From assembly GCA_964556185.1 (NCBI GenBank), contig CAZKVI010000003.1:2089-66088 (forward strand): a stretch of 64,000 bases of DNA, read 5' to 3'. The translations under genes were made by a program, and so were the position numbers. Under the pieces are notes generated by a model. The model was not told the origin of the DNA. It worked only from the letters and a program-made list of their open reading frames with translations, and did not search any database. The number at the start of each line of letters is the position of its first letter. The stretch's first letter is position 1. This document shows, piece by piece, positions 1,503 to 63,631 of the stretch. Origin of the DNA: an uncultured Methanosarcinales archaeon. GTDB taxonomy: Archaea; Nanobdellota; Nanobdellia; Woesearchaeales; DSVV01.

Positions 1503-1772
1503 ATGGGGAAAAAGTTAACTAATTCTGATTATGTAAAAATTAAGAAAAACATTCTTAAAAGATTATATTCTAAACAAGCATTTAGTCAAGGCCATTTGTT
1601 ATATGAAAGATTACGATCAAGTATCCCCCCTCATTTACATGGATTTGTAGAAGATGTTCTTAAAGATCTTATAAAAGATGGGTTAGTTATATCTTATGGA
1701 AAAACAAAACATGGAAATGCTTATCAATTAAATATTAAGAAATTAGATGAGATTGAGAATATAATAATTTAA
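1503..1772 (+). CDS. hypothetical small basic protein
   Basis: 89-aa ORF with ATG start and host-like codon bias. Confidence 0.3.
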   Translation: MGKKLTNSDYVKIKKNILKRLYSKQAFSQGHLLYERLRSSIPPHLHGFVEDVLKDLIKDGLVISYGKTKHGNAYQLNIKKLDEIENIII

Positions 1773-2914
1773 TTGAAATAACTCAAAACCCTATCTATTT
1801 TTTTATTTTTCTTATATTCTTTAGCTAAAGACATAACTTTCTTCTTGTCAATATCCAATCCACTTCTCTCGATAAACTTACCTGAAGAGAAGAATTGCAG
1901 AACTTGAGTTACATTCTTTGGTCTTTCAGAATAATTAGATCTTTCAAAGTCAATCAAATGAATTTTGTTCTTGTCGTCGATTATAATATGTTTCATTGGT
2001 TTATGCATCTCTTCTTTGTTTATGTTTAATTCATCCATTTTCTTCATCAATCGCAATAATTGTCTCATTACATCTTTTATTTCTTTTTTATTTCCTTTCT
2101 CAAATAAATCATGTATCAATTTCCCGTCAACAAATTCCATTACAAAGTAATCATCGCAACCAAAACACAATTTTGGACCTATTTTTTCTTTATTTAGTTT
2201 CTTTAGCCAGTTTTTCTCAATCTTTACTCTTGATATTGCTTCACTCATAGGATTTTTAGATTTGACAACAACTTTTTTACCTTTATAATTAGCTAAAAAC
2301 AATAATCCTCTATTACCTTTTGTAAAATATTGAACATTTGTTAATCCTTTTCCTTCTAAAGTTTTCAAAAACTTTTGTTTTTCAATAATATAAACATACA
2401 ATTCTTCAAAACCAACTTTCAACTTATCAATTTCCTTAAACTCAAATAAATTTCTATCTAAAATCTCACAAACTTTCTTTTTCTTAGATAATGAACTAAA
2501 TAATAACAATATTTTACCATTTTCAACTAAATAAGAATTAACATTATCCAAAAACCTCTCAATAAGTTCATAACCTTTTTTACCTCCATCTAATGCAATA
2601 TCTCGAGCATAATCTTTCTCAGGATCTGGTAAATAAGGCGGATTAAAAATAACTAAATCAAACTTCCCAGTAACTTTTGAGAACAAATCACTTTCAATAA
2701 CTTTTACATTCTTCAAATTTTGTTGTTTAACATTCTTTTGAACAAACTTAACAGCTTCTGGATTAATATCAACAGCTAATACATTAGCATATTTAGCAGC
2801 TTCTAAAGCAAGTATTCCAGAACCAGTACCTATTTCCAATACATTACCTTTGCAATAGTCTTTCAAATGCTTTTGCAATAGATAAGAGTCTTCTCTTGGT
2901 TGATATATTTCCAT
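1769..2914 (-). CDS. HemK/Mtq2-like N5-glutamine methyltransferase fused to a Bud32/RIO-like small kinase domain
   Basis: N-terminal VLEIGTGSGILALEAAK...DINPEAV...DLVIFNPPYLP (SAM methyltransferase with the NPPY motif). C-terminal Gly-rich loop KGNRGLLFLANYKGKKVVVK, hinge FVMEFVDG, IHLIDFERS (DFG-like). Confidence 0.55.
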   Translation of the reverse strand: MEIYQPREDSYLLQKHLKDYCKGNVLEIGTGSGILALEAAKYANVLAVDINPEAVKFVQKNVKQQNLKNVKVIESDLFSKVTGKFDLVIFNPPYLPDPEKDYARDIALDGGKKGYELIERFLDNVNSYLVENGKILLLFSSLSKKKKVCEILDRNLFEFKEIDKLKVGFEELYVYIIEKQKFLKTLEGKGLTNVQYFTKGNRGLLFLANYKGKKVVVKSKNPMSEAISRVKIEKNWLKKLNKEKIGPKLCFGCDDYFVMEFVDGKLIHDLFEKGNKKEIKDVMRQLLRLMKKMDELNINKEEMHKPMKHIIIDDKNKIHLIDFERSNYSERPKNVTQVLQFFSSGKFIERSGLDIDKKKVMSLAKEYKKNKKIDRVLSYFN

Positions 2915-2950
2915 AAAGGTAATAATTCATAACTATTTATTAATTCTTTC

Positions 2951-3451
2951 CTAAAAATCCAAATCAATTTTCCTAAAATAGTCAGTTACTCTGCTCATTA
3001 TTGGTGGTAAAACATATTGTTCAATCTTCTCCCTATAAACATCTTGTAAATCACTGAATTCAACAATTCTATAATTATTCTTAATTTTCTCAACAAGAAA
3101 AATATCTCGAAGTCTTTTAATTTGTCTTCTTACATTTGAAGAAGCCACTCCAGTCAAAGGTAATTCATAATTATTCCTTGTTTCAATTACCATTGATCTT
3201 ATTTCATCAGAACTTAAGTTCTTTCTGTCTTTTTTTGCTTCTAAAATAACATAGAGTACATCAACAATTACATCTCTACTATCACCTGGCTGTAAAAGAC
3301 CCATGCTTAAGCAGAACTTTCTTACTAATTCTCTTTTATCCAAGGAATCTGGTTTTTCATATCTTCTTAATGTGAGTTCCATCAAAGGAGTATCGCGGGA
3401 GATTGTTGCCATAATTATCACCTCAATTATATGTAGCAGCATTGAGCTCAA
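2951..3451 (-). CDS. hypothetical protein (possible DNA-binding)
   Basis: 166-aa ORF, basic. Start may be an internal Met (MATISRD). Confidence 0.35.
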   Translation of the reverse strand: MSSMLLHIIEVIIMATISRDTPLMELTLRRYEKPDSLDKRELVRKFCLSMGLLQPGDSRDVIVDVLYVILEAKKDRKNLSSDEIRSMVIETRNNYELPLTGVASSNVRRQIKRLRDIFLVEKIKNNYRIVEFSDLQDVYREKIEQYVLPPIMSRVTDYFRKIDLDF

Positions 3452-3741: not shown

Positions 3742-6700
3742 CTAAACCTTCTCACAACTTATCAAAACTTCCATCTTTTTAATCTTCTCTTTAGAACAAT
3801 CTTGTAATGTGTCTGCTTCAACACCAACAAAGATCTCAACAGCCCCACATTTGTCTTTAATATCATCTTGCCATTTGATTAACATATCAACATATGATTG
3901 AGTACTCTGCAAATGCAATTTAATATTATCTTTTTTCTCCAATCCTAACTTTTTCCTAAATGCTTGAACTCTTCGCATGACTTCTCTGGAATAACCTTCT
4001 GCATCTAAGTCAGGAGTTCTTGTTTTATCTAAAAACAATTGTCCATGTCTATATTCTGCTTCAACTAAGTTCTCAGGCAGTTCTTTCTCAATAATAAAGT
4101 GCTCTTTTTTCAAACTTACTTTATGTCCATCTAAAACAACAGTATGTGCACCTTTTTCAACATCTGCCAAGATTTTCTCGTCAGCAACTTGTATTAATCT
4201 AGTAATTATTTTAGGAACTAATTCACCATATTCTTGACCAATTGTTCTATGGTTTGGTTTCATTTTTATCTTAACTTCAGTACACTTATCAACTAATTCA
4301 ATATGTTTGACATTTGTTTGTTTTTTAATAGTTTCATCTAACTTAGTAATAGATTCAATAGTATCATTATCAGTAACTACAATCCTAATTTTACCAACAG
4401 GCCATCTTACTCCTAGTTGTGCTCTTTCACGAGCAGCTAAAATACTTTGAATTGTATCTTTTGCAATAGAAAACTCTTTTTCTAAAGAGTTATCAATAAA
4501 CTTTGCATCAAATTTAGGCCAATCAAACAAATGAATACTCTCAACCTCAAGATCAAAGTACTCTTTCAAATCTTGATACATTCTCTCAGCTATAAATGGA
4601 GAAACAATTGCAAACATTTTCAAATTCTCTAAAAATGTTTCAAATATAACATTAAATACAACTTGTTTTTGTTCTTCCAACCCAAGAGCTGCTTTCTCAC
4701 GAACCAATTGAATATATGTTCTTGATAATTCCATAAATATTTCTTCAACTTTCAAAGGAACTTCATTTATCTTATAACTATCCATTAATTCTGTTATTTC
4801 TTTAATACCAGAATGTAATTTTGAAATCATATACTCTTCTTCTTGTTCTAAACAATTCTTATCAATTCCAGTGAATTTCAAACCATTATTCTTAGCTAAA
4901 TCAATTATAAACTTGTGCAGATTCCAATACACACCTAAATTCTTATATTTTAATTTACAGTCATCAAAATTATAATTAATATCAATTCCAGGATTAGCTC
5001 CACCAATCATATAATATCTTAATGTGTCTGCTCCGTATTTATCAACAACTTCTTGAGGTAAAATATAATTACCAAGAGATTTACTCATCTTACGTCCCTG
5101 TGAATCTTGTACAAAACCATGCATGTAAACATTTCTAAAAGAAGGTTTTTCCATGCTTACCATAGAAGCAACATGTAATAAATTAAACCAACCTCTAATT
5201 TGATCTTTTCCTTCTAAAATAAAATCAGGTGGAAACAAATTCTTAAAATTCTCTTCTTTATGTGGATAATCCAAACAAATCCATGAAGTACAACCAGCAT
5301 CTACCCAAACATCTAAAATATCTGGAATTCTTTTTTTAACACCACCACAATCACATTTGATTGTTACTTCATCAATCCAAGGTTTATGTAATTTCTCTAC
5401 TTTTTGTCCTGATAACTTTTCTAATTCAGCAACATCACCGACGACAATATAATTATCACACTCTTCACATCTCCATACTGGTACTGGTGTTCCCCAGAAT
5501 CTTTGTTTTGTAATAGAATTGTCTCTTAAGTTTTCTAACCATGAATTAAAAGCATTATAAGCAGCTTGAGGTACCCATTTAATTTTATTATTCTCTTCAA
5601 TTAACTTTTCTTTCATATCATCTACTTTAAAGAACCATTGTTTTGTAGTTTTATAGACAACAGCTTCATGACATCTCCAACAATGTGCATAACTATGATT
5701 AGTTTTACTTTGTGCAATTAAAGTGCCATTCTCATCCATTAGTTCAACAAATTTCTTATCATCTTTCTTAGCAACTAAACCAGAGAACTTTGAATCATCC
5801 TTTGGATATGTGCCATTTTCATCAATAAGATTAAATGGTTTAATACCTTTTCTTACACATAATTCATAATCAGAATCCCCGCAACCAGGTGCAAAATGCA
5901 CTAAACCAGTACCATCATCTAAATGTACATATTCATCTGATAATAAAACTGTATAAATCTTATCTTGTGTTTTTCTTGCTTCTTTAATTTGAGGAAATGA
6001 ATTTTCAAAAGAAGGAATATATTCTTTGCCTTCTAATTTCTTTCCTTTGAATTCTTCAACAATTTCATAATCTTTTCCTGCTTTTAATTTAATAACTTCT
6101 TCTGCAAGGTCTTTTGCAACAATCCAATGTTCATCACCAACTTTACATTTAACATATTCAAAATCAGGATGTACAACAACTGCTAGATTAAAAGGAATTG
6201 TCCATGGAGTTGTTGTCCAAATGATTAAATAATCATTTTCAGTTCCTCTTAATTTAAATCTTAAATAAATAGAATCATCAGTAATATCTTGGTATTCTAA
6301 TTCATGCTTTGCTAATGCTGTTGCACACGAAGCACACCAAGTCATTGCTCTTTCTCCTTCATACAATCTTTTATTTTCATGTGCTTTTTTAATTAACCAC
6401 CATTCTCCTTCAATAAATTCTTTTGAAATAGGTTGGTAAGCATTTTCAAAGCCCATCCATACACCTAATCTAGTAAAATCCTTATTCATTACATGCATAT
6501 TTTCTATAGATAGTTTTTTACATTCTTCAATAAACTTAGCAACACCAAACTTCTTGATTCCTTCTTTTCCATTAATTCCTAGTTTCTTTTCAACTGCATG
6601 CGCTGTAGGTAATCCATGCATATCATAGCCAGCTCTATCCCAAACATTGAAACCAGCCATTCTTTTATATCTAAGAACCATATCTTTTAGTGATTTGTTC

Positions 6701-6870
6701 CAAGCAGTACCTATATGAACCTTCCCAGAAGTATAAGGTGGTCCATCTAAGAAATAGTAGTCTTGGCCATCTTTACATTTATCTTTAGCTTTCTGGTATA
6801 TACTGTTCTTATCCCAGAACTCTAAAGTGCCTTCTTCAACTTCCTTGAAATCATAATTCCCTACTTGCAT
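3742..6870 (-). CDS. ileS: isoleucine--tRNA ligase (archaeal/eukaryotic type)
   Basis: HIGH motif (PPYTSGKVHIGTAW) and KMSKS motif (KMSKSLGNY), editing domain, 1040-1059 aa. Start assigned to MQVGNYDFKEVEE because the TATA box at about 6925-6935 would place the transcription start downstream of the first ATG at 6921. Confidence 0.9.
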   Translation of the reverse strand: MQVGNYDFKEVEEGTLEFWDKNSIYQKAKDKCKDGQDYYFLDGPPYTSGKVHIGTAWNKSLKDMVLRYKRMAGFNVWDRAGYDMHGLPTAHAVEKKLGINGKEGIKKFGVAKFIEECKKLSIENMHVMNKDFTRLGVWMGFENAYQPISKEFIEGEWWLIKKAHENKRLYEGERAMTWCASCATALAKHELEYQDITDDSIYLRFKLRGTENDYLIIWTTTPWTIPFNLAVVVHPDFEYVKCKVGDEHWIVAKDLAEEVIKLKAGKDYEIVEEFKGKKLEGKEYIPSFENSFPQIKEARKTQDKIYTVLLSDEYVHLDDGTGLVHFAPGCGDSDYELCVRKGIKPFNLIDENGTYPKDDSKFSGLVAKKDDKKFVELMDENGTLIAQSKTNHSYAHCWRCHEAVVYKTTKQWFFKVDDMKEKLIEENNKIKWVPQAAYNAFNSWLENLRDNSITKQRFWGTPVPVWRCEECDNYIVVGDVAELEKLSGQKVEKLHKPWIDEVTIKCDCGGVKKRIPDILDVWVDAGCTSWICLDYPHKEENFKNLFPPDFILEGKDQIRGWFNLLHVASMVSMEKPSFRNVYMHGFVQDSQGRKMSKSLGNYILPQEVVDKYGADTLRYYMIGGANPGIDINYNFDDCKLKYKNLGVYWNLHKFIIDLAKNNGLKFTGIDKNCLEQEEEYMISKLHSGIKEITELMDSYKINEVPLKVEEIFMELSRTYIQLVREKAALGLEEQKQVVFNVIFETFLENLKMFAIVSPFIAERMYQDLKEYFDLEVESIHLFDWPKFDAKFIDNSLEKEFSIAKDTIQSILAARERAQLGVRWPVGKIRIVVTDNDTIESITKLDETIKKQTNVKHIELVDKCTEVKIKMKPNHRTIGQEYGELVPKIITRLIQVADEKILADVEKGAHTVVLDGHKVSLKKEHFIIEKELPENLVEAEYRHGQLFLDKTRTPDLDAEGYSREVMRRVQAFRKKLGLEKKDNIKLHLQSTQSYVDMLIKWQDDIKDKCGAVEIFVGVEADTLQDCSKEKIKKMEVLISCEKV

Positions 6871-6991
6871 AAGAATTAGTGAATGAATGAGTGATTTATA
6901 AATATTATGGCATAATAACACATATTATATATGAAAAAGGCGTATTTTATTACACAAAAATTTAAATACTTCCTTACCAAGAAATTAAATC

Positions 6992-7452: not shown

Positions 7453-8769
7453 ACATAACATATGCTCTCTGAAGAAATTCATCTTCCGAGGGTATTTATT
7501 TATTTTTTCTATTGTTTTCTTATAATTATTTCTTAATTTAATAGCTTCTTTATTAGTCAATCCTGAAGAAACTTCATAAGTTAATCTAGGCTCCAATACA
7601 GTTCTTTGTTCTTCAATAATCTTAGTTATTTTGAATTTCTTTGGGTTTTTGTATACTTGAGAATCTTTTTGCAAACCAAATATTGAAACAGAGACTAAAT
7701 CAATATATTCATCATTATCTTTTAAGAATTGAATAGTTTCTAAGAATTCTTCTCTAGTTTCCCCTGGAAAACCAAACATTATGTAGACTACATTCTTTAT
7801 TCCTACTTCATGTGAATGTTTTAATACTTTTTCAACTTCTTCTTTGTTTGTTCCTTTGTTCATTAATTTCAAAACTCTATTATTTCCAGACTCAACACCC
7901 CAAATAACCATTGATAAACCAGATTCTTTTAATTTAACTAATGTTTCTTTGTTAATATCTTTTGGTTTTAATTGACAAGTGTAATTAACTTTTAATGGTT
8001 TTAAAACATTAGCTATTTCTAATAATCTTTTCTCATGTATCATGTCATCAATTAAAAAGAAATGTTTTTGTTTTGATTTCTTAATTGTTTGTTTTATTAA
8101 TTCTAAATTATATTCACAATAAGGTTGATTTGTAAAATGTGTACAAAAAGTACATCCTTTATAATAACAAGTTGATGATGTTTTAATTGGAATAACTGGT
8201 TCTGGACAAAAATACTCTTTTAGATTGTAAATAGAAAAATCAGGAACAATTTCACAGTTTAATTCATCATGTTTCACTTCTTCACCAATATATTTCAATA
8301 ATTCAACTTCATTATTCAAACACTTGGCCAGAGATTTTAATTTATCATTAACAGCAGGCCCACCAATTACAACATTCTTTAATTCTTTCAATAAAGCATA
8401 TGCATAAAATGCTTGACTTGAATAAACTAAACTAAATAAAACCAAATCAGGTTTCTTTTCTTGAATTTTCTTTAACATTTCTTCAAACAATTCTGGTTTT
8501 TCACCATTTACAACTGCTCTATTATTTTTCAGATATAATTTTGAAGTTATTTTGTTAAATTCTGTTGTTGTTTTTTCATAATCATCAAATTTACCTTCTT
8601 GGTAGTATTTATGATACTCTGGAAATTTCTTTTTATGAAATTCTAAATTCAAATCTAATACATCAATATTATGCTTTGAATTAGCCTTTAGAAATGAAGC
8701 TAAATAAGTCAATGAATAAGGAGGACTCGCAGGAGTACAAAACGGTAAATATACTAGTAATATGTTCAT
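7444..8769 (-). CDS. B12-binding domain radical SAM protein
   Basis: N-terminal MNILLVYLPF...PPYSLTYLASFL (B12-binding fold typical of class B radical SAM). Cys cluster CYYKGCTFC. Confidence 0.6.
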   Translation of the reverse strand: MNILLVYLPFCTPASPPYSLTYLASFLKANSKHNIDVLDLNLEFHKKKFPEYHKYYQEGKFDDYEKTTTEFNKITSKLYLKNNRAVVNGEKPELFEEMLKKIQEKKPDLVLFSLVYSSQAFYAYALLKELKNVVIGGPAVNDKLKSLAKCLNNEVELLKYIGEEVKHDELNCEIVPDFSIYNLKEYFCPEPVIPIKTSSTCYYKGCTFCTHFTNQPYCEYNLELIKQTIKKSKQKHFFLIDDMIHEKRLLEIANVLKPLKVNYTCQLKPKDINKETLVKLKESGLSMVIWGVESGNNRVLKLMNKGTNKEEVEKVLKHSHEVGIKNVVYIMFGFPGETREEFLETIQFLKDNDEYIDLVSVSIFGLQKDSQVYKNPKKFKITKIIEEQRTVLEPRLTYEVSSGLTNKEAIKLRNNYKKTIEKINKYPRKMNFFREHMLCSI

Positions 8770-9339: not shown

Positions 9340-10713
9340 GTGGTTTTATGGGTGCAAAAATTGAGTTTAATAATAGATCCAAACGCAGCAGAAGAATTTG
9401 ATTATCAATTAGATAGATCTCTAAGAGTTGATATTACTTATGATCTTGATCTTGGTCTTTCAGAAAATTTAGAAAGAAAAATAGCAGCAGTCGCTAGTTC
9501 AAGAGAAAGACCAGATATTATTTGTGGGCAAAGATCTTCTTTAATACAATTACCTGAACCTTCTACTATTTTCAAAGGCTTTGATTTACAAGCCATACAA
9601 GTAAAAGGACATTTCTTTAGACCAACAGAAGAAAGCCGTGTTATTCATAATCCACAAATGACTATTTACACAGGAAGAGGTCATCCTGAAGTAATTTGGC
9701 ATTTCGATGATAAAGGAACACTAATTCTTATTCCAAATCCTGATATTCCTTGTGGTGCAATGCTCTTAGAAAATGCAAAACTTGAATTTAGAGCAGCAAA
9801 AGAAATGATGGAAGTAGGTTTACCTGTTGTTTGTCCAATGGGTTATGGAAATTTTCCTGATTTAGGATTTAATGTATATGATTCTATAATGGCTGCAACT
9901 CCAGGCACACTAAGTGGGTTTGCTATACAAGCTGGAGCATATGGTGATTTGGCAGCTATTAATAGAAGACAAGAAGTTGGATTTATGGTTTATGGAATTT
10001 ACACACCTGATAATTGTCGTTGTTTTGAAAGTGTTCTCAATGTAACTTCTGAATTAGATAAATCAAATAAAAGATTATTTTTAGCTGATTTCTTTAGAGC
10101 TTATGGAGCAGCACTAAGACAATTTCATGATAAAGGTTATATTCATGGGTCTCCTAATTTAGATAATCTTTCTCTTGTACCAGTTAGTGAAGCTAGACGA
10201 GGAATGAAATTACCAAATAAATTACAAACATTTTCTGTGTATGAAATTGTTTTCCATGATCTAACAGGAGACCTTGGAACTATTACGAGAAGAAAAGATG
10301 TTTCAAAAGAAAAATGGTTAAGTCATGTTATTTGGGATTTATCAGTTACAACAGGATTGTTATCTAATTTTTATTTTACACCAGAACGATGGGATATGGT
10401 TTATGGACATGATGGAGAAGCCCGTAGAAATATAATTAGAAGAAACCAAAGAATTGCTGAATTAACACAAGAAGTAGGTTATAATCCTGGTCCTGCTTTT
10501 TTTAAAGGATATTTAGGTGAAGATTTTCATAAACTTCCATCAGATTATTTTGAACATGATGGCAGTATGCTTATGCCATGCGATATAAGAACAAGAATAA
10601 CAATACCTTTACAATTAGCCATGAACAGAGGAGAAAAACCACAAGTAAACATCCCAGAATTCTGCAAAACAGAACCTTTAATGAATGTTGTTAGAAATGT
10701 TTATATGCAGTAA
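9340..10713 (+). CDS. hypothetical protein with kinase-like motif (possible pseudokinase); GTG start, true start uncertain
   Basis: GYIHGSPNLDNLSL resembles the HGDLHPGN catalytic loop with Asp replaced by Ser. Lys-poor composition. Confidence 0.35.
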   Translation: MVLWVQKLSLIIDPNAAEEFDYQLDRSLRVDITYDLDLGLSENLERKIAAVASSRERPDIICGQRSSLIQLPEPSTIFKGFDLQAIQVKGHFFRPTEESRVIHNPQMTIYTGRGHPEVIWHFDDKGTLILIPNPDIPCGAMLLENAKLEFRAAKEMMEVGLPVVCPMGYGNFPDLGFNVYDSIMAATPGTLSGFAIQAGAYGDLAAINRRQEVGFMVYGIYTPDNCRCFESVLNVTSELDKSNKRLFLADFFRAYGAALRQFHDKGYIHGSPNLDNLSLVPVSEARRGMKLPNKLQTFSVYEIVFHDLTGDLGTITRRKDVSKEKWLSHVIWDLSVTTGLLSNFYFTPERWDMVYGHDGEARRNIIRRNQRIAELTQEVGYNPGPAFFKGYLGEDFHKLPSDYFEHDGSMLMPCDIRTRITIPLQLAMNRGEKPQVNIPEFCKTEPLMNVVRNVYMQ

Positions 10714-12587: not shown

Positions 12588-13892
12588 ATGGTAAAAAGAG
12601 CTGGAATGAAACAAAAGTTAGGAGTAATTAAGGAATTTGAAGACTTAATAGTTGAATATCCTATTATTGGTTCTGTTAATATGACTTCTTTACCAACTAA
12701 AACAGTTCAGCAAATGAGAGCTCAATTAAGAAAAAAAGGCGTTGTCCTTAAAATGAGCAAAAGAAGATTAATTAATATTGCAATAAATAATTGTAAAGAG
12801 AAAAAGAAAGGTATTGAAAATCTTCTACCTGAACTTAAAGGTATGCCAGCATTAATATTCACAAAAGAAAATCCTTTTGCATTATACAAGTTTTTATCTA
12901 AGAATAAATCATCTGCTCCTGCAAAAGCAGGCCAAATAGCTCCAAATGAAATTGTAGTTAAAGCAGGTCCAACAGGTTTTTCACCAGGACCAATTATTGG
13001 AGAACTAGGTGCTGTAGGAATTAAAGCAGGTGTTGATGGTGGAAAGATTGCAATCAAAGCAGATAGTGTTGTAGCTAAAGAAGGAGATGAAATTACAGAA
13101 CAATTAGCAGCAATATTAACAAGACTTGGTATTGAACCAATGGAAATTGGTTTAAACATGGTTGCAGTATTTGAAGAAGGTAATGTTTATGATAGTAAAA
13201 TCTTAGCAATTGATGAAGATGAATACATGAATAACATAACAACAGCAGCAACTTGGGCTTTCAACTTAGCAGTTGAAGCAGCAATACCAACACCAGATAC
13301 AACAGAATTACTATTACAAAAATGTTTCAAAGATTCCAAAGCAGTTGCAATGGAAGGAAATATTATGGCAGATGCTGTTGCAGAAGAATTACTTGCAAAA
13401 GCTGAAAGAGAAATGTTAGCTCTAAAAGCAGAAGCAAATATTAGTGATGCACCAGTAGTTGACAAAGTCAACGAAGAAGCGCAAGCTTCTGTAAAAGAAG
13501 AAGTTAAAGAAGAACCAAAAGCTGAAGAAAAACCAGCTGAAGAAGCAAAAGAAACAGAAACAAAAGAAGTTTCCGAACTTTCCGAGGGAAAGCAAGAAGC
13601 TGATAAAGCTTCTGTGGGAAACGAAGAAGTCGCAGAGACTTCTGAAGAAAAACCAGCAGAAACTACAGAAACTAAAGAAGGACCTGAAGCAGAAGGAGCT
13701 GATGAGGCACCTAAAGCAGAAGAAAAACCAGCTGAACCTGCACCAGCAGAGGAAGCAAAAGCTGAAGAGAAAGCTGATGAGGCTAAACCTGAAGCTAAAG
13801 AAGAAGCTGCACCAGAAGAACCAGCTAAAGAAGAACCTAAAGCTGAAGAAGCTCCTGCAAAAGCAGAAGATAAACCAGCTGATGAATCATAA
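12588..13892 (+). CDS. rplP0: ribosomal stalk protein P0 (uL10) with roughly 130-aa EKPA-rich C-terminal extension
   Basis: uL10 core domain, then [17 protein letters not shown] repeats. Ends ...KPADES without the conserved stalk peptide (GxGALF-type) seen in P1. Confidence 0.85.
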
Positions 13893-24738: not shown

Positions 24739-26331
24739 TTATTTTTTCAATTGCTCAGATTTAGCAAAATCTCTATTTGCTTCATCTTGTCTATCCATCC
24801 TTTCTAGTGCACAACCTCTATTGTTATAACATGTAGCCAAGAATTCATCTGAAACGTCTTCTGCTTTATCAATTACAATTGAATATTGTTCAAATGCATT
24901 TTCATTATCTCCTTTTTTAAGGTAAGCATATCCTAATCCTGATATTGCATCATAATCATCTGGTTCTAATTTTAATTGTTCAAATCTACACTCAATAGCT
25001 AAATCATATTCTTCTAAGCTTACAGCTGCAACTGCAGCATTATTATAAACAGCTTTTTGTGTTCCTTCCTCTAATTCATTTCTAACTTCTATTAATATTT
25101 TATAATGACGTAGTGCATCTTCTTTATTTCCAAGTTCTCCATTAGCATAAGCTACACCAAAACGTGCATCATGATTATTTGGATCAAAAGCAAGTAAATA
25201 ATAACCATCTACAATAGCACCTTTCCAATCACCGACTTCTCTTCTTGCACCAAAACTATTAGTTCGTATATACATACAATTAGGAAATAAAGAACTTGCT
25301 CTATTCAAACAATCAGAAGCTTTTTCCATACATTGCTCTTTTTCACCTTCTTCAGCAATATCAGATCTTACTATCCATTCATATCCTAAGTTCCCATACA
25401 TAATTCCAGCAATTTGTTTTTTATTAAGACCTTTCATATATCCTCCTCTTTCTAATTCATCTCTACCTAAACCAAATTCTTCAATATATTCTTCATCACT
25501 CCTTGCAATTCCTGCAGTAGTTTCCCAATTCACATGACTACCATCAAATTTCCCCCATCTTACAAACATATGTTCTGGGCCTAATACAGCTTCAATAGGG
25601 AAATTAAGTACTTGCCCAATTGCAAGATAAATCATTGACATATTGTCACAATCCATTTGGTAAAATCCTTGACTATATTTTTCTATTTTTCTTCTTCTTG
25701 AACCTCTTCTATATTCACTAAGGAAAGAGAAATAACCAGAAGGAGATTGAGTACGTAAAATATGATCATTTATGAAATCATTTACTTCTTCTGATGCTTC
25801 TGTAAATTCATCTCCTTCAAAATCAATAATTTTTTGAGCATTTCCTTCATCTTTTAGATATTCTACAATTTCTCCTTCTTGTTTTGTAAATGCTGAACCT
25901 AGTCTATTATTTTCTTTATAAACAACATTAAATATATCAGAAAGAGCTTCATCAATCCATCCCATAATCTTTCTTATGTCATCTAGATCATATGTTTCTA
26001 TCATTTCACTACTAAAAGCTGAGTCAACTCCTTCCTCACCAAGCCTTGAACCTAAAGATACTCTTTCTGGGCTTGCAATTTCTGCTTTATATTTTGTTCT
26101 AATTTCATGAATAACAGAATCTAAGAAATCATAATTTTCTTGAGTTACTTCAAAACCTTGTAGATGTTCAGCATCTAAAAATGAATGAGCATATGTATTA
26201 TATCTAGAATCAAATCCAGATCTTTCTCTCTCAATTGCCAAGGCTGTAACAGGTGCAAAACTAGTCACAATTGCTGCCAAACCAGCTGCAGCTCCACTAG
26301 CACCCAAAAACCACCTTCTACTCCTTTCCAT
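24739..26331 (-). CDS. Tat-signal transglutaminase-like cysteine protease-fold protein with C-terminal TPR repeats
   Basis: SRRWFLGASGAAAGLAA (twin-arginine signal motif). Cys-His-Asp core QMDCDNMSMIYL...PEHMFVRWG...NWETT. TPR-like C-terminus. Confidence 0.55.
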   Translation of the reverse strand: MERSRRWFLGASGAAAGLAAIVTSFAPVTALAIERERSGFDSRYNTYAHSFLDAEHLQGFEVTQENYDFLDSVIHEIRTKYKAEIASPERVSLGSRLGEEGVDSAFSSEMIETYDLDDIRKIMGWIDEALSDIFNVVYKENNRLGSAFTKQEGEIVEYLKDEGNAQKIIDFEGDEFTEASEEVNDFINDHILRTQSPSGYFSFLSEYRRGSRRRKIEKYSQGFYQMDCDNMSMIYLAIGQVLNFPIEAVLGPEHMFVRWGKFDGSHVNWETTAGIARSDEEYIEEFGLGRDELERGGYMKGLNKKQIAGIMYGNLGYEWIVRSDIAEEGEKEQCMEKASDCLNRASSLFPNCMYIRTNSFGARREVGDWKGAIVDGYYLLAFDPNNHDARFGVAYANGELGNKEDALRHYKILIEVRNELEEGTQKAVYNNAAVAAVSLEEYDLAIECRFEQLKLEPDDYDAISGLGYAYLKKGDNENAFEQYSIVIDKAEDVSDEFLATCYNNRGCALERMDRQDEANRDFAKSEQLKK

Positions 26332-50122: not shown

Positions 50123-50269
50123 CGAAGTTAGAAGTTCAACAAGAACTTCTCATTATTACCCATATACTGGATAATAACCTTCATATCAATATTAATGCCA
50201 TAGGTTATATATAAACCTTTCGGTTATGTAGTTACTTTAGAGGAGTTAATATATAAAAGAAAGTATATA

Positions 50270-50341
50270 TGGACTCACCGAGATTTGAACTCGGAGTCTC
50301 CCCGAAGCCAACGGGGTGCGATACCATTTCGCCATAAGCCC
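50270..50341 (-). tRNA. tRNA-Ala(GGC), no intron
   Basis: GGGCTTA acceptor with the G3:U70 Ala identity pair; D-stem GCGA/TCGC; anticodon stem CCCCG/CGGGG; loop UU-GGC-UU; T-arm CCGAG-TTCAAAT-CTCGG. Confidence 0.8.
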
Positions 50342-50508
50342 ATACAATGCTAGCTACATATATGCTTATATATAATTTACGCTAATTTCTCACTATATGT
50401 AGTACTTGTACACATTACATAACTTTCTAATAAAGCAATCCTAATATACAAATCATAACCTTTTTATATCACCTTAGTCATACTTTGACTTAACACGGGG
50501 GTGTTTAA

Positions 50509-62167: not shown

Positions 62168-63631
62168 ATGAAACATGGAGTTTTGGGTAGTCTAGCTGGA
62201 TTAGTATCAATCTTATTCACAGCTCTAGCTCCAGGCAATGCAGGAGCGATTTCTCCTGACTTAAGAAAACAATTAGCAAGTGAAGAAGATAGACAAGAGC
62301 AAGTTGAATACACTCCAGATGTTTCTCAATTACAAATTGGTTTGTCAAGAGATGTTTCAACTTTAGAAGGTTGTTTAGATATTGAAGGAGAAGTTCTTCC
62401 TTGGAATGTTTATCATAAATTCAAACATAGAGATAATTTAGGCCAAGAATTAATTGCATATGCTCAAAACATTGATTCATTAACAACACAAGGAAATGAA
62501 CCAGAACAATTTGAGTTATTATTAAATGGATTACAAATTTATGCTCAGAATTTAGCTATTATTGGAAATGCACCAGAGGATCCACAAAAAGAACGACAAC
62601 TATTAGAAGATATAACACAAGCTAGAACTACTTTACAAGATTATAACACACAACAATCACATCTGGCCAATAATGATTCAATACTTCAACAATATGTAAA
62701 TAATCTAGATCAAAGTTCACTAAATCAAAGACAACAAACTCAATTATTCCAAAGACTTTTTACTTTGGATGATAAGCCACAATTACAAACACAAATTGCA
62801 ACAATTCTTAAACAAAGTTTTGAAAACATGCCAGGAGATAAGATTGGAATTATTGGTACAAATGATATTCCTTATGCAATTGCTGACAACAGAGTTGCTC
62901 AACTTTCTATTTTAGGAGTAGATATTCAAGATACAAATAGAAAACTCTTAAGATCAGGACCAGTTAGAGCTATTGACAGAGAATTAAATCCTGTTGATGG
63001 TTTTTATTTATTAAATGCTGAAAGATTAGCTCATTATGGAATTAATCCAGATGATACAATAACAATAGAAGGTGAAACAGGACTTGTTTATGCAACTGGT
63101 GATACAACTACAACTGACTTTTTATTTAGTTTATATGAACAACTCCCAATAAATCCAACACAACAACAAAGACTTTTAGTTAATTACATGTTCTCAGATA
63201 TTGATCCAGATAATATTTCTGGTCAAGTAACTCAACCTAGAAACAGAGGAAAATCTGTTGTTTTTTCATTTGTTCCAATGTTAGACACAACTGTTGAAGT
63301 TTTACATCCATCTTCTCAAAAATATTCAACAACAACACTTTATATATCTCCAGAAATGGAACAAGGTGTAGAAGATTATAAATTACCTGCATGGGGAGTT
63401 TCTCCTATTGATTTACAACAAATACAATCTTCTTTAGATCAATATGATCAAGCTTTTGCAGACTATGTAAGAGCAAATCTTCCTGAACTTGAACAGAGTG
63501 CAAGAGAACAAGCAGAAGCTTTTTCTAGAATGATTACACCATATCTACAAATAGCTAGTAATCCAGCTCTAGAATATACTATTGATGCAAATAGCTCTCA
63601 AGAACCAAATGAACACCTACCAATAGAATAA
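62168..63631 (+). CDS. secreted Gln/Asn-rich protein
   Basis: Signal peptide MKHGVLGSLAGLVSILFTALAPGNAGA. Lys-poor. Confidence 0.4.
   Translation: MKHGVLGSLAGLVSILFTALAPGNAGAISPDLRKQLASEEDRQEQVEYTPDVSQLQIGLSRDVSTLEGCLDIEGEVLPWNVYHKFKHRDNLGQELIAYAQNIDSLTTQGNEPEQFELLLNGLQIYAQNLAIIGNAPEDPQKERQLLEDITQARTTLQDYNTQQSHLANNDSILQQYVNNLDQSSLNQRQQTQLFQRLFTLDDKPQLQTQIATILKQSFENMPGDKIGIIGTNDIPYAIADNRVAQLSILGVDIQDTNRKLLRSGPVRAIDRELNPVDGFYLLNAERLAHYGINPDDTITIEGETGLVYATGDTTTTDFLFSLYEQLPINPTQQQRLLVNYMFSDIDPDNISGQVTQPRNRGKSVVFSFVPMLDTTVEVLHPSSQKYSTTTLYISPEMEQGVEDYKLPAWGVSPIDLQQIQSSLDQYDQAFADYVRANLPELEQSAREQAEAFSRMITPYLQIASNPALEYTIDANSSQEPNEHLPIE

Follow-up and report, generated by a model that had tools for sequence, protein, structure and literature searches.

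ArkI is an archaeal RNA kinase of the AQ578/COG2112 family that makes 2'-phosphouridine at position 47 of tRNA (Up47), and class I tRNA is the sole target of its homologues in total RNA (PMC9095486). Enzyme and modification were described in 2022 as the first stable internal RNA phosphorylation reported, and were read as a heat adaptation. TkArkI (PDB 7vnx) carries a DFE motif, is abolished in activity by the mutation D149A, and has an unusually high Michaelis constant (Km) for ATP of 1.2 mM, which its authors considered as possible energy sensing (PMC9095486). Experimentally validated ArkIs are known also from M. fervens, N. viennensis and A. aeolicus, as well as N. profundicola, and a stand-alone protein of 175 aa has been crystallised with ATP under the title 'G. 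acetivorans RNA kinase Ark1' (PDB 8yv4, 8yv5). An orthologue of the release-factor methyltransferase Mtq2 (HemK2) is reported in all archaeal phyla, and the H. volcanii enzyme methylates the GGQ glutamine of aRF1 in a manner dependent on aEF1A-GTP, with Trm112 dispensable in vivo (van Tran et al., PMC6144793). Yeast Mtq2 is inactive when Y15, E19, D20, N122 or the aspartates that bind S-adenosylmethionine (SAM) are mutated, and likewise in the charge-reversal double mutant D26K/E29K of helix alpha1, residues which serve eRF1 recognition (Liger et al., PMC3152332).

Here we describe a gene in which members of these two families are joined in one chain. It lies on the minus strand at 1769..2914 of a 64-kb stretch of the archaeal contig CAZKVI010000003.1 (the window), to which all coordinates refer unless a related locus (L followed by a number) is named. 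We think it probable that its product, the Mtq2-ArkI fusion protein, has two enzymatic activities, both of which modify components of the translation apparatus.

The gene and its two domains

The open reading frame (ORF) runs from ATG to TAA and encodes 381 aa, both in the ORF list and on direct reading of the DNA, in which no stop codon or frameshift separates the methyltransferase half from the kinase half. More than 100 full-length fused homologues are present on independent Woesearchaeota/Nanoarchaeota contigs; among the matches listed, the 120 best database relatives are each 368–468 aa long, with query coverage of 90–100% and identities of 45–92%. In the best 80 loci of a metagenome scan, 66 have both halves in a single frame. 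AlphaFold2 models the whole chain, from a 63-sequence alignment, with a mean predicted local distance difference test score of 91.7 and a predicted template modelling score of 0.84, the sole disordered stretch being the loop after NPPY (residues 101–111). Because of the full-length homologues, the single-frame metagenome loci and the confident model, the join is not an assembly artefact, and this is a genuine single two-domain gene. Its catalytic residues are invariant in both halves across 121 fused sequences, far beyond chance, and both halves are under purifying selection.

The N-terminal half (aa 1–178; 2381..2914, minus strand, as are all features of the gene given below) is, from its family matches, an archaeal HemK2/Mtq2 orthologue. 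Its scores exceed the curated NCBIfam cut-offs for NF011529 (197.7 bits, cut-off 162) and TIGR00537 (161.8 bits, cut-off 87), and all 63 aligned members of the fusion family match both models. It has the class I SAM methyltransferase fold with GxGxG, the motif-II Asp and the adenine-binding Asp-Leu. The SAM-binding motif I is G29-T-G-S-G33 (2816..2830), and motif IV, which binds a planar amide or amine nitrogen, is N91-P-P-Y94 (2633..2644; invariant in 121/121). The N-terminal active-site motif of Mtq2 is also present as Y4-Q-P-R-E8-D9-S10 (2885..2905). Y4, E8, D9, N91 and D49, which correspond to yeast Y15, E19, D20, N122 and a SAM-binding Asp, are invariant in the 121 fused proteins, and D76 and L77 are nearly so.

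The C-terminal half (aa 181–381; 1772..2374; net charge about +20) has no Pfam or NCBIfam match above threshold. Pfam Pkinase scores 17–19 bits against a cut-off of 31.7, Kdo 13 bits against 21.3, and RIO1 is undetected; the best Bud32 model reaches 29.5 bits against a cut-off of 372 on this half alone, and the others 17.8–27.4 against 188–246. The closest solved kinase structures in a sequence search are the Geoglobus Ark1 entries 8yv4 and 8yv5 (E 1.5e-11), and phmmer matches TkArkI (E 3.3e-9) over residues 21–219 of its 223-residue chain. A profile built from 41 kinase domains, from which TkArkI was absent, matches TkArkI at E 2.8e-18, 11 orders of magnitude ahead of the next non-ArkI match, a generic protein kinase (1.7e-7). 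The 8yv4 match in this profile search is circular, as Geoglobus sequences are in the alignment. No Bud32 or RIO structure occurs among the 60 profile matches shown, or among the top Foldseek fold matches. In a profile-profile comparison by HHalign, the domain aligns with 25 Thermococcales ArkI proteins across 185 columns, nearly the whole length, at a probability of 99.8% and E 6e-29. These comparisons identify the half as an ArkI-family RNA kinase domain, with its activity a prediction from family membership.

The residues expected of such a kinase are in place. They include the P-loop G200-N-R-G203 (2306..2317; G200, R202 and G203 invariant), the ATP-anchoring lysine K218 (2261..2263; invariant), the catalytic loop K300-E-E302-M-H-K-P306-M-K308-H309 (1988..2017; K300, E302, M303, P306 and H309 invariant, K308 98%) and the metal-binding loop D322-F-E-R325 (1940..1951; invariant), which is an ArkI-type DFE and not DFG. 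N334-V-T336-Q337 (1904..1915; N334 invariant, T336 96%) begins the ArkI-specific helix, and Y367-K-K369 in the C-terminal helix (1808..1816; Y367 invariant) is the counterpart of the ArkI YKR motif. TkArkI residues K137, D149, N160, T162 and Y200-K201-R202 thus align with K308, D322, N334, T336 and Y367-K-K, while H130 and Q132 align with K300 and E302 (PDB chain numbering of TkArkI equals the paper numbering + 7). Nearly all of the 150 kinase representatives examined are marked by a loop of the form K-x-E-M-x-x-P-x-K-H with DFER after it, and Geoglobus Ark1 has the same K-E-E-M variant. After DFE the next helix begins within only about 10 residues, and an activation segment is thus absent; the fold is that of a reduced eukaryotic-type protein kinase (ePK) without subdomains VIII and X, as in ArkI.

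A previous sequence-only reading of this DNA had proposed that one ORF joins a complete NPPY-motif glutamine/adenine-type methyltransferase to a small Bud32/RIO-like kinase, and had raised a missed stop codon between the domains as a concern. The uninterrupted frame, the equally fused homologues and the HemK2/Mtq2 matches bear out the fusion and the methyltransferase, and every motif it listed is present: NPPY, the Gly loop, the VVK lysine, the ME..DG hinge (VMEFVDG) and IDF (LIDFER, aa 320–325). Its assignment of the kinase has to be replaced: Bud32 falls 6- to 13-fold below the curated cut-offs, RIO1 is undetected and ArkI is the best match. The Kdo, RIO1 and Bud32 profiles to which it had pointed stay below threshold, and what is recognised is a protein-kinase-like fold, through the ArkI and generic ePK matches.

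There is a corresponding gap in annotation. No model in Pfam-A or NCBIfam release 20 recognises ArkI-family kinases, and the crystallised G. acetivorans Ark1 itself has no above-threshold match in either. Hundreds of fused proteins are consequently named only 'methyltransferase' in the databases.

Fused, split and stand-alone relatives and their neighbourhoods

Searched exhaustively, the kinase half matches 1030 cluster representatives (clustered at 50% identity) with E <= 1e-3, of which 588 reach E <= 1e-10. The top 150 representatives comprise 93 methyltransferase-kinase fusions, 53 stand-alone kinases (about 185–250 aa) and four fusions of the kinase to PF01035, and the source names of the fused proteins are Candidatus Woesearchaeota, Nanoarchaeota and Nanoarchaeia. 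In the 80 metagenome loci, the 66 fused genes are accompanied by eight cut at a contig end, one truly stand-alone kinase and five kinases with a separate Mtq2 ORF directly upstream. In four of these five pairs the start codon of the kinase either shares nucleotides with the stop codon of the methyltransferase or comes before it: as ATGA in L087 (~7595–7619), TAATG in L077 (~1218–1278), ATGTTAG in L066 (~2127–2157) and an overlap of about 40 nt in L062 (~9977–10020); the fifth, L063 (2258–2304), has a 45-nt spacer. The overlaps of stop and start mark these as translationally coupled genes and not sequencing frameshifts. Split and fused forms thus both exist, as a survey of relatives suggested by the sequence-only reading makes clear, with the fused form in the majority of sampled members, and judged by homology the Mtq2-ArkI pairing is common in DPANN archaea. 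In a neighbour-joining tree of the kinase domains, fused and stand-alone forms are intermixed (39 parsimony changes), which suggests that the fused state is labile, but the tree is weakly resolved, too much so to separate a single fusion with many fissions from several independent fusions. A contig scan with the single fusion protein gave only three unrelated bacterial methyltransferase loci (L001–L003).

The four other fusions (P0130, P0213, P0239 and P0254; L007, 8001–8969) carry the ArkI-type kinase C-terminally joined to PF01035, the O6-alkylguanine-DNA alkyltransferase C-domain, with the PCHR cysteine kept. The kinase therefore has two alternative fusion partners. A separate PF01035 gene (about 100 aa, PCHR intact) lies 100 nt or less downstream of the fusion gene in 16 of 71 related loci, and at a distance of up to 3 kb in 13 of 32, as at L005 11404–11697, L004 11712–12047 and L006 12756–13112; the 64-kb window has none. 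Eight related loci (L005, at 12894–13049, L025, L033, L043, L049, L053, L059 and L082) have a Trm112 gene (PF03966, 42 bits) on the downstream side of the fusion gene, at 1.4–4.5 kb. This gene encodes about 51 residues with a zinc-ribbon CPxC...CxxC and often lies beyond a TFIIB gene. No Trm112 gene was detected in the window, which also holds no paralogue of the methyltransferase or kinase half, and neither it nor any related locus examined contains an aRF1 gene. A second methyltransferase-profile match, in L028, is a zinc-dependent alcohol dehydrogenase and not a paralogous Mtq2.

Upstream, the gene order in the window is isoleucyl-tRNA synthetase (IleRS; 3742–6921), a 166-aa protein (2951..3451) and the fusion gene, all on the minus strand, and the same order is repeated in L004–L006. 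The 166-aa protein belongs to the context and not to the enzyme. It is conserved at 153–166 aa with no Pfam match, and its orthologues, 63–85% identical in L005 and L006, where they likewise precede the fusion gene, have only a weak sub-threshold match to the HVO_A0261_N winged helix; it is also placed directly before the fusion gene in 12 of 38 metagenome loci, in most cases with IleRS on its upstream side. An A/T-rich spacer of 36 nt separates its stop codon from the fusion gene and contains, about 20–30 nt before the ATG, TTAATAAATA (2934..2943, minus), which from its sequence and position may be an archaeal TATA box. A sigma-70 promoter scan found 17 sites against 13.8 +/- 3.5 expected, no enrichment, and an intrinsic-terminator scan found none, neither model being applicable to archaea. 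The wider surroundings are housekeeping in character (IleRS, TFIIB, Trm112, ribosomal proteins, EF-1-beta), with no defence island.

Downstream of the fusion gene, synteny with the relatives breaks. The window has at this side a DUF2283 protein (684–1055, minus), a 116-aa helix-turn-helix-like protein with weak PADLOC PDC-M05A matches (1058–1408, minus) and a convergent 89-aa ORF (1503–1772, plus), whose end overlaps the stop codon of the fusion gene by 4 nt. The first ~8 kb have a G+C content of 28–30% and a GC skew down to -0.38, compared to 31–35% G+C at 8–32 kb, the region of ribosomal-protein and elongation-factor genes; the shift at ~8 kb probably reflects differences of strand and gene content. 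Further away, ORFs at 24739–26331 (minus) and 62168–63631 (plus) have Ala/Gly-rich, signal-like N-termini, one of which resembles a twin-arginine signal.

A tRNA-Ala(CGC) gene immediately precedes the fusion gene in four related loci, its last nucleotide lying 1–2 nt ahead of the ATG (...GAGTCCA|T ATG; L024 8399–8472, L031 951–1023, L039 9287–9361 and L060 9388–9459; compare L052 3664–3736). This arrangement, which is absent at the window locus, suggests a tRNA-mRNA co-transcript, from which 3' processing of the tRNA would release a leaderless message encoding a tRNA-modifying enzyme.

Predicted function and competing explanations

We favour the explanation that the fusion combines methylation of the aRF1 GGQ glutamine with 2'-phosphorylation of tRNA U47, and that it descends from a coupled gene pair. 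The Mtq2 domain would most likely carry out SAM-dependent N5-methylation of that glutamine, possibly assisted by Trm112, and the ArkI domain ATP-dependent phosphorylation of the 2'-OH of U47, a variable-loop position of class I tRNAs. In chemical terms the two reactions are probably independent of one another. Fusion, apparently from a translationally coupled gene pair, would guarantee their 1:1 co-expression, and the very basic kinase domain may in addition keep the methyltransferase near tRNA and tRNA-like translation factors. It is family membership that points to both substrates, and any physical coupling of the domains is likewise putative. The link to translation put forward in the sequence-only reading would accordingly hold for termination, through the identity of Mtq2, while its link to N6-threonylcarbamoyladenosine (t6A) and ribosome biogenesis finds no above-threshold Bud32 or RIO match and no neighbouring Kae1.

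Several observations weigh against this explanation, the first of which concern the tRNAs. The only tRNA in the window, tRNA-Ala(GGC) at 50269–50342 (minus; G3:U70 pair), has the variable loop A-G-A-C-U and thus C47, not the U targeted by ArkI. Five tRNA-Ala genes in related loci also have C47, while tRNA-Val in L065 has A-G-G-U-C, the canonical G46-U47-C48; this sample of seven class I tRNAs from the window and related loci (one U47, six C47) is a partial tRNA set. The source metagenomes appear largely non-thermal from our own reading of contig names (e.g. Hainich groundwater, White Oak River), and for that reason the thermostability rationale for Up47 is not obviously applicable. The catalytic loop K-E-E-M...K-H departs from the H-G-Q...K-H of the characterised TkArkI, with the K137-equivalent lysine kept, and our literature searches turned up no paper on the activity or the structure of the Geoglobus enzyme. 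There is no Mtq2 neighbour at the stand-alone kinases of L009 and L058, the kinase-PF01035 gene of L007 or the Geoglobus Ark1 locus L011, so the pairing is not obligatory. Lastly, the two positions of helix alpha1 at which eukaryotic Mtq2 is acidic (yeast D26 and E29) are K15 and K18 here, and the fused family has K/R at position 15 in 93/121 and R/K at position 18 in 112/121. We would treat this basic helix as a caveat and not as evidence of a changed substrate, the acidic requirement being established only for yeast.

The same helix, together with the very basic partner domain, the link to PF01035 and the adjacency of tRNA-Ala, could instead indicate that both domains act on tRNA, with ArkI binding the variable loop and elbow, and perhaps phosphorylating U47, and the Mtq2-derived NPPY site retargeted to the exocyclic amine of a nearby base, or working in sequence with the kinase. 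We consider this doubtful. The constellation of Y4/E8/D9 and NPPY, by which Mtq2 grips the GGQ glutamine, is invariant, the methyltransferase domain scores above curated equivalog thresholds for the Mtq2 family, and Trm112 adjoins the gene in some relatives. Split forms vary at positions 15 and 18, which are E/E in L077, and Lys/Arg-rich surfaces are common in AT-rich DPANN proteomes. A broader and unlikely proposal is that a so far unrecognised module of DPANN archaea is centred on the ArkI kinase, in which an Mtq2-derived NPPY methyltransferase, the 2'-kinase and a PCHR-containing, alkyltransferase-like PF01035 domain, fused or adjacent in varying combinations, serve one nucleic-acid substrate, most plausibly tRNA. 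If true, the three-part module would amount to a novel pathway of RNA modification or repair in mesophiles, the methyltransferase would not act, or not only, on aRF1, and Up47 would not be for thermotolerance.

Returning to the kinase, the protein-kinase-like fold, the generic ePK matches (E 1e-5 to 1e-7), the high Km of TkArkI for ATP and the catalytic loop unlike that of TkArkI might be taken to mean that this half is a protein kinase or an ATP-sensing regulator, targeting aRF1, another translation factor or the attached methyltransferase. This is quite improbable, since the domain, like ArkI, has neither an activation segment nor the substrate-binding subdomains VIII and X, keeps the helix specific to ArkI and the RNA-binding motif YK(K/R), and has a strong positive charge that suits RNA binding, while ArkI homologues act on class I tRNA only in total RNA. 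A still more remote idea starts from WbdD, which has the same domain order and is the top whole-chain Foldseek match (E 2.5e-14): the kinase would add a phosphate that the methyltransferase then methylates, giving a methyl-phosphate cap at the tRNA 2'-position. The match has a template modelling score of only 0.38–0.44 and 14% identity. A Bud32/RIO-type kinase tied to KEOPS and t6A or to ribosome biogenesis, as suggested by the small bilobal fold and weak sub-threshold Bud32 matches (27–29 bits), is effectively refuted by the profile scores, the lead of ArkI over every other kinase, the lack of Bud32 and RIO among the top fold matches, and immediate neighbours that are IleRS and a protein without Pfam match, not Kae1. 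A component of MADS-type anti-phage defence, in which a methyltransferase is paired with a kinase, is hardly credible despite PADLOC matches to mad2 (88 bits, methyltransferase half) and PD-T4-6 (33 bits, kinase half), as the Mtq2 model scores 198 bits on the region matched by mad2, the neighbours are housekeeping genes and synteny is kept across a whole archaeal order, unlike that of a mobile defence island.

Significance and comparison with known systems

Both domains of the probable aRF1- and tRNA-modifying enzyme come from known families, and we found no description of their fusion in the searchable literature; neither the main text nor the supplement of the paper that reported ArkI mentions a methyltransferase fusion (PMC9095486). 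The view that this is not a commonly described architecture, expressed in the sequence-only reading, thus agrees with the literature, though the fusion is frequent in DPANN archaea. The finding by itself overturns nothing. It does bring to light a large ArkI subfamily of 1030 clusters in DPANN archaea, many of them from environments that look non-thermal, which greatly widens the range of ArkI and raises the question of what tRNA 2'-phosphorylation is for outside thermophiles. In most sampled members the kinase is covalently joined to Mtq2, a Rosetta-stone link between release-factor maturation and tRNA variable-loop modification that can be tested, and for which the fusion is a compact natural construct for biochemistry. 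If the domains cooperate on one substrate this would be a new RNA-modification logic; if they do not, the correction of annotation and the wider range of ArkI remain.

Compared to the described ArkI enzymes (TkArkI, 7vnx; Ark1, 8yv4/8yv5), which are stand-alone, the kinase here is the C-terminal half of a larger protein. A homologue search seeded with TkArkI listed only Thermococcales proteins, 120 in number, which are 180–223 aa long, mostly about 215, and all stand-alone. The catalytic loop is Geoglobus-like and not that of TkArkI, the hosts are low-GC DPANN archaea that are apparently mostly non-thermophilic, and the kinase function is a predicted one. The described Mtq2/HemK2-Trm112 enzymes (yeast and E. 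cuniculi Mtq2, human N6AMT1, H. volcanii Mtq2) lack the C-terminal kinase domain found here, and the acidic residues that yeast Mtq2 uses in helix alpha1 for eRF1 recognition are replaced by Lys/Arg. Bud32 and RIO kinases share with the present domain an ancient archaeal lineage and a small, two-lobed ePK-like fold that has no long activation segment; it differs from them in having no link to Kae1, and in the ArkI-specific helix and YKR-type motif. WbdD of E. coli O9a also has a methyltransferase followed by a kinase in one chain, but it acts on the end of a polysaccharide, where it methylates the phosphate that it has added. The two proteins differ in the relative orientation of the domains and in the subfamilies of both, and no coiled-coil is present here, so that architecture and geometry are not shared.

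The closest likeness in kind is to the bacterial PrmC/TrmB protein (NF002421), a bifunctional enzyme found in Rickettsiales, which likewise combines a release-factor GGQ methyltransferase with a modifier of the tRNA variable loop in reduced genomes. PrmC/TrmB modifies tRNA position 46 (7-methylguanosine, m7G46), next to position 47 of ArkI. Its second domain is a SAM methyltransferase, compared to an ATP-dependent kinase here, and its first is bacterial PrmC, compared to archaeal Mtq2; six fused DPANN proteins match NF002421, through the methyltransferase half. The similarity is one of convergent analogy and not of common descent of the fusion. The same pairing in two unrelated lineages with reduced genomes suggests co-regulated maturation of the translation apparatus, which would require no shared chemical step.

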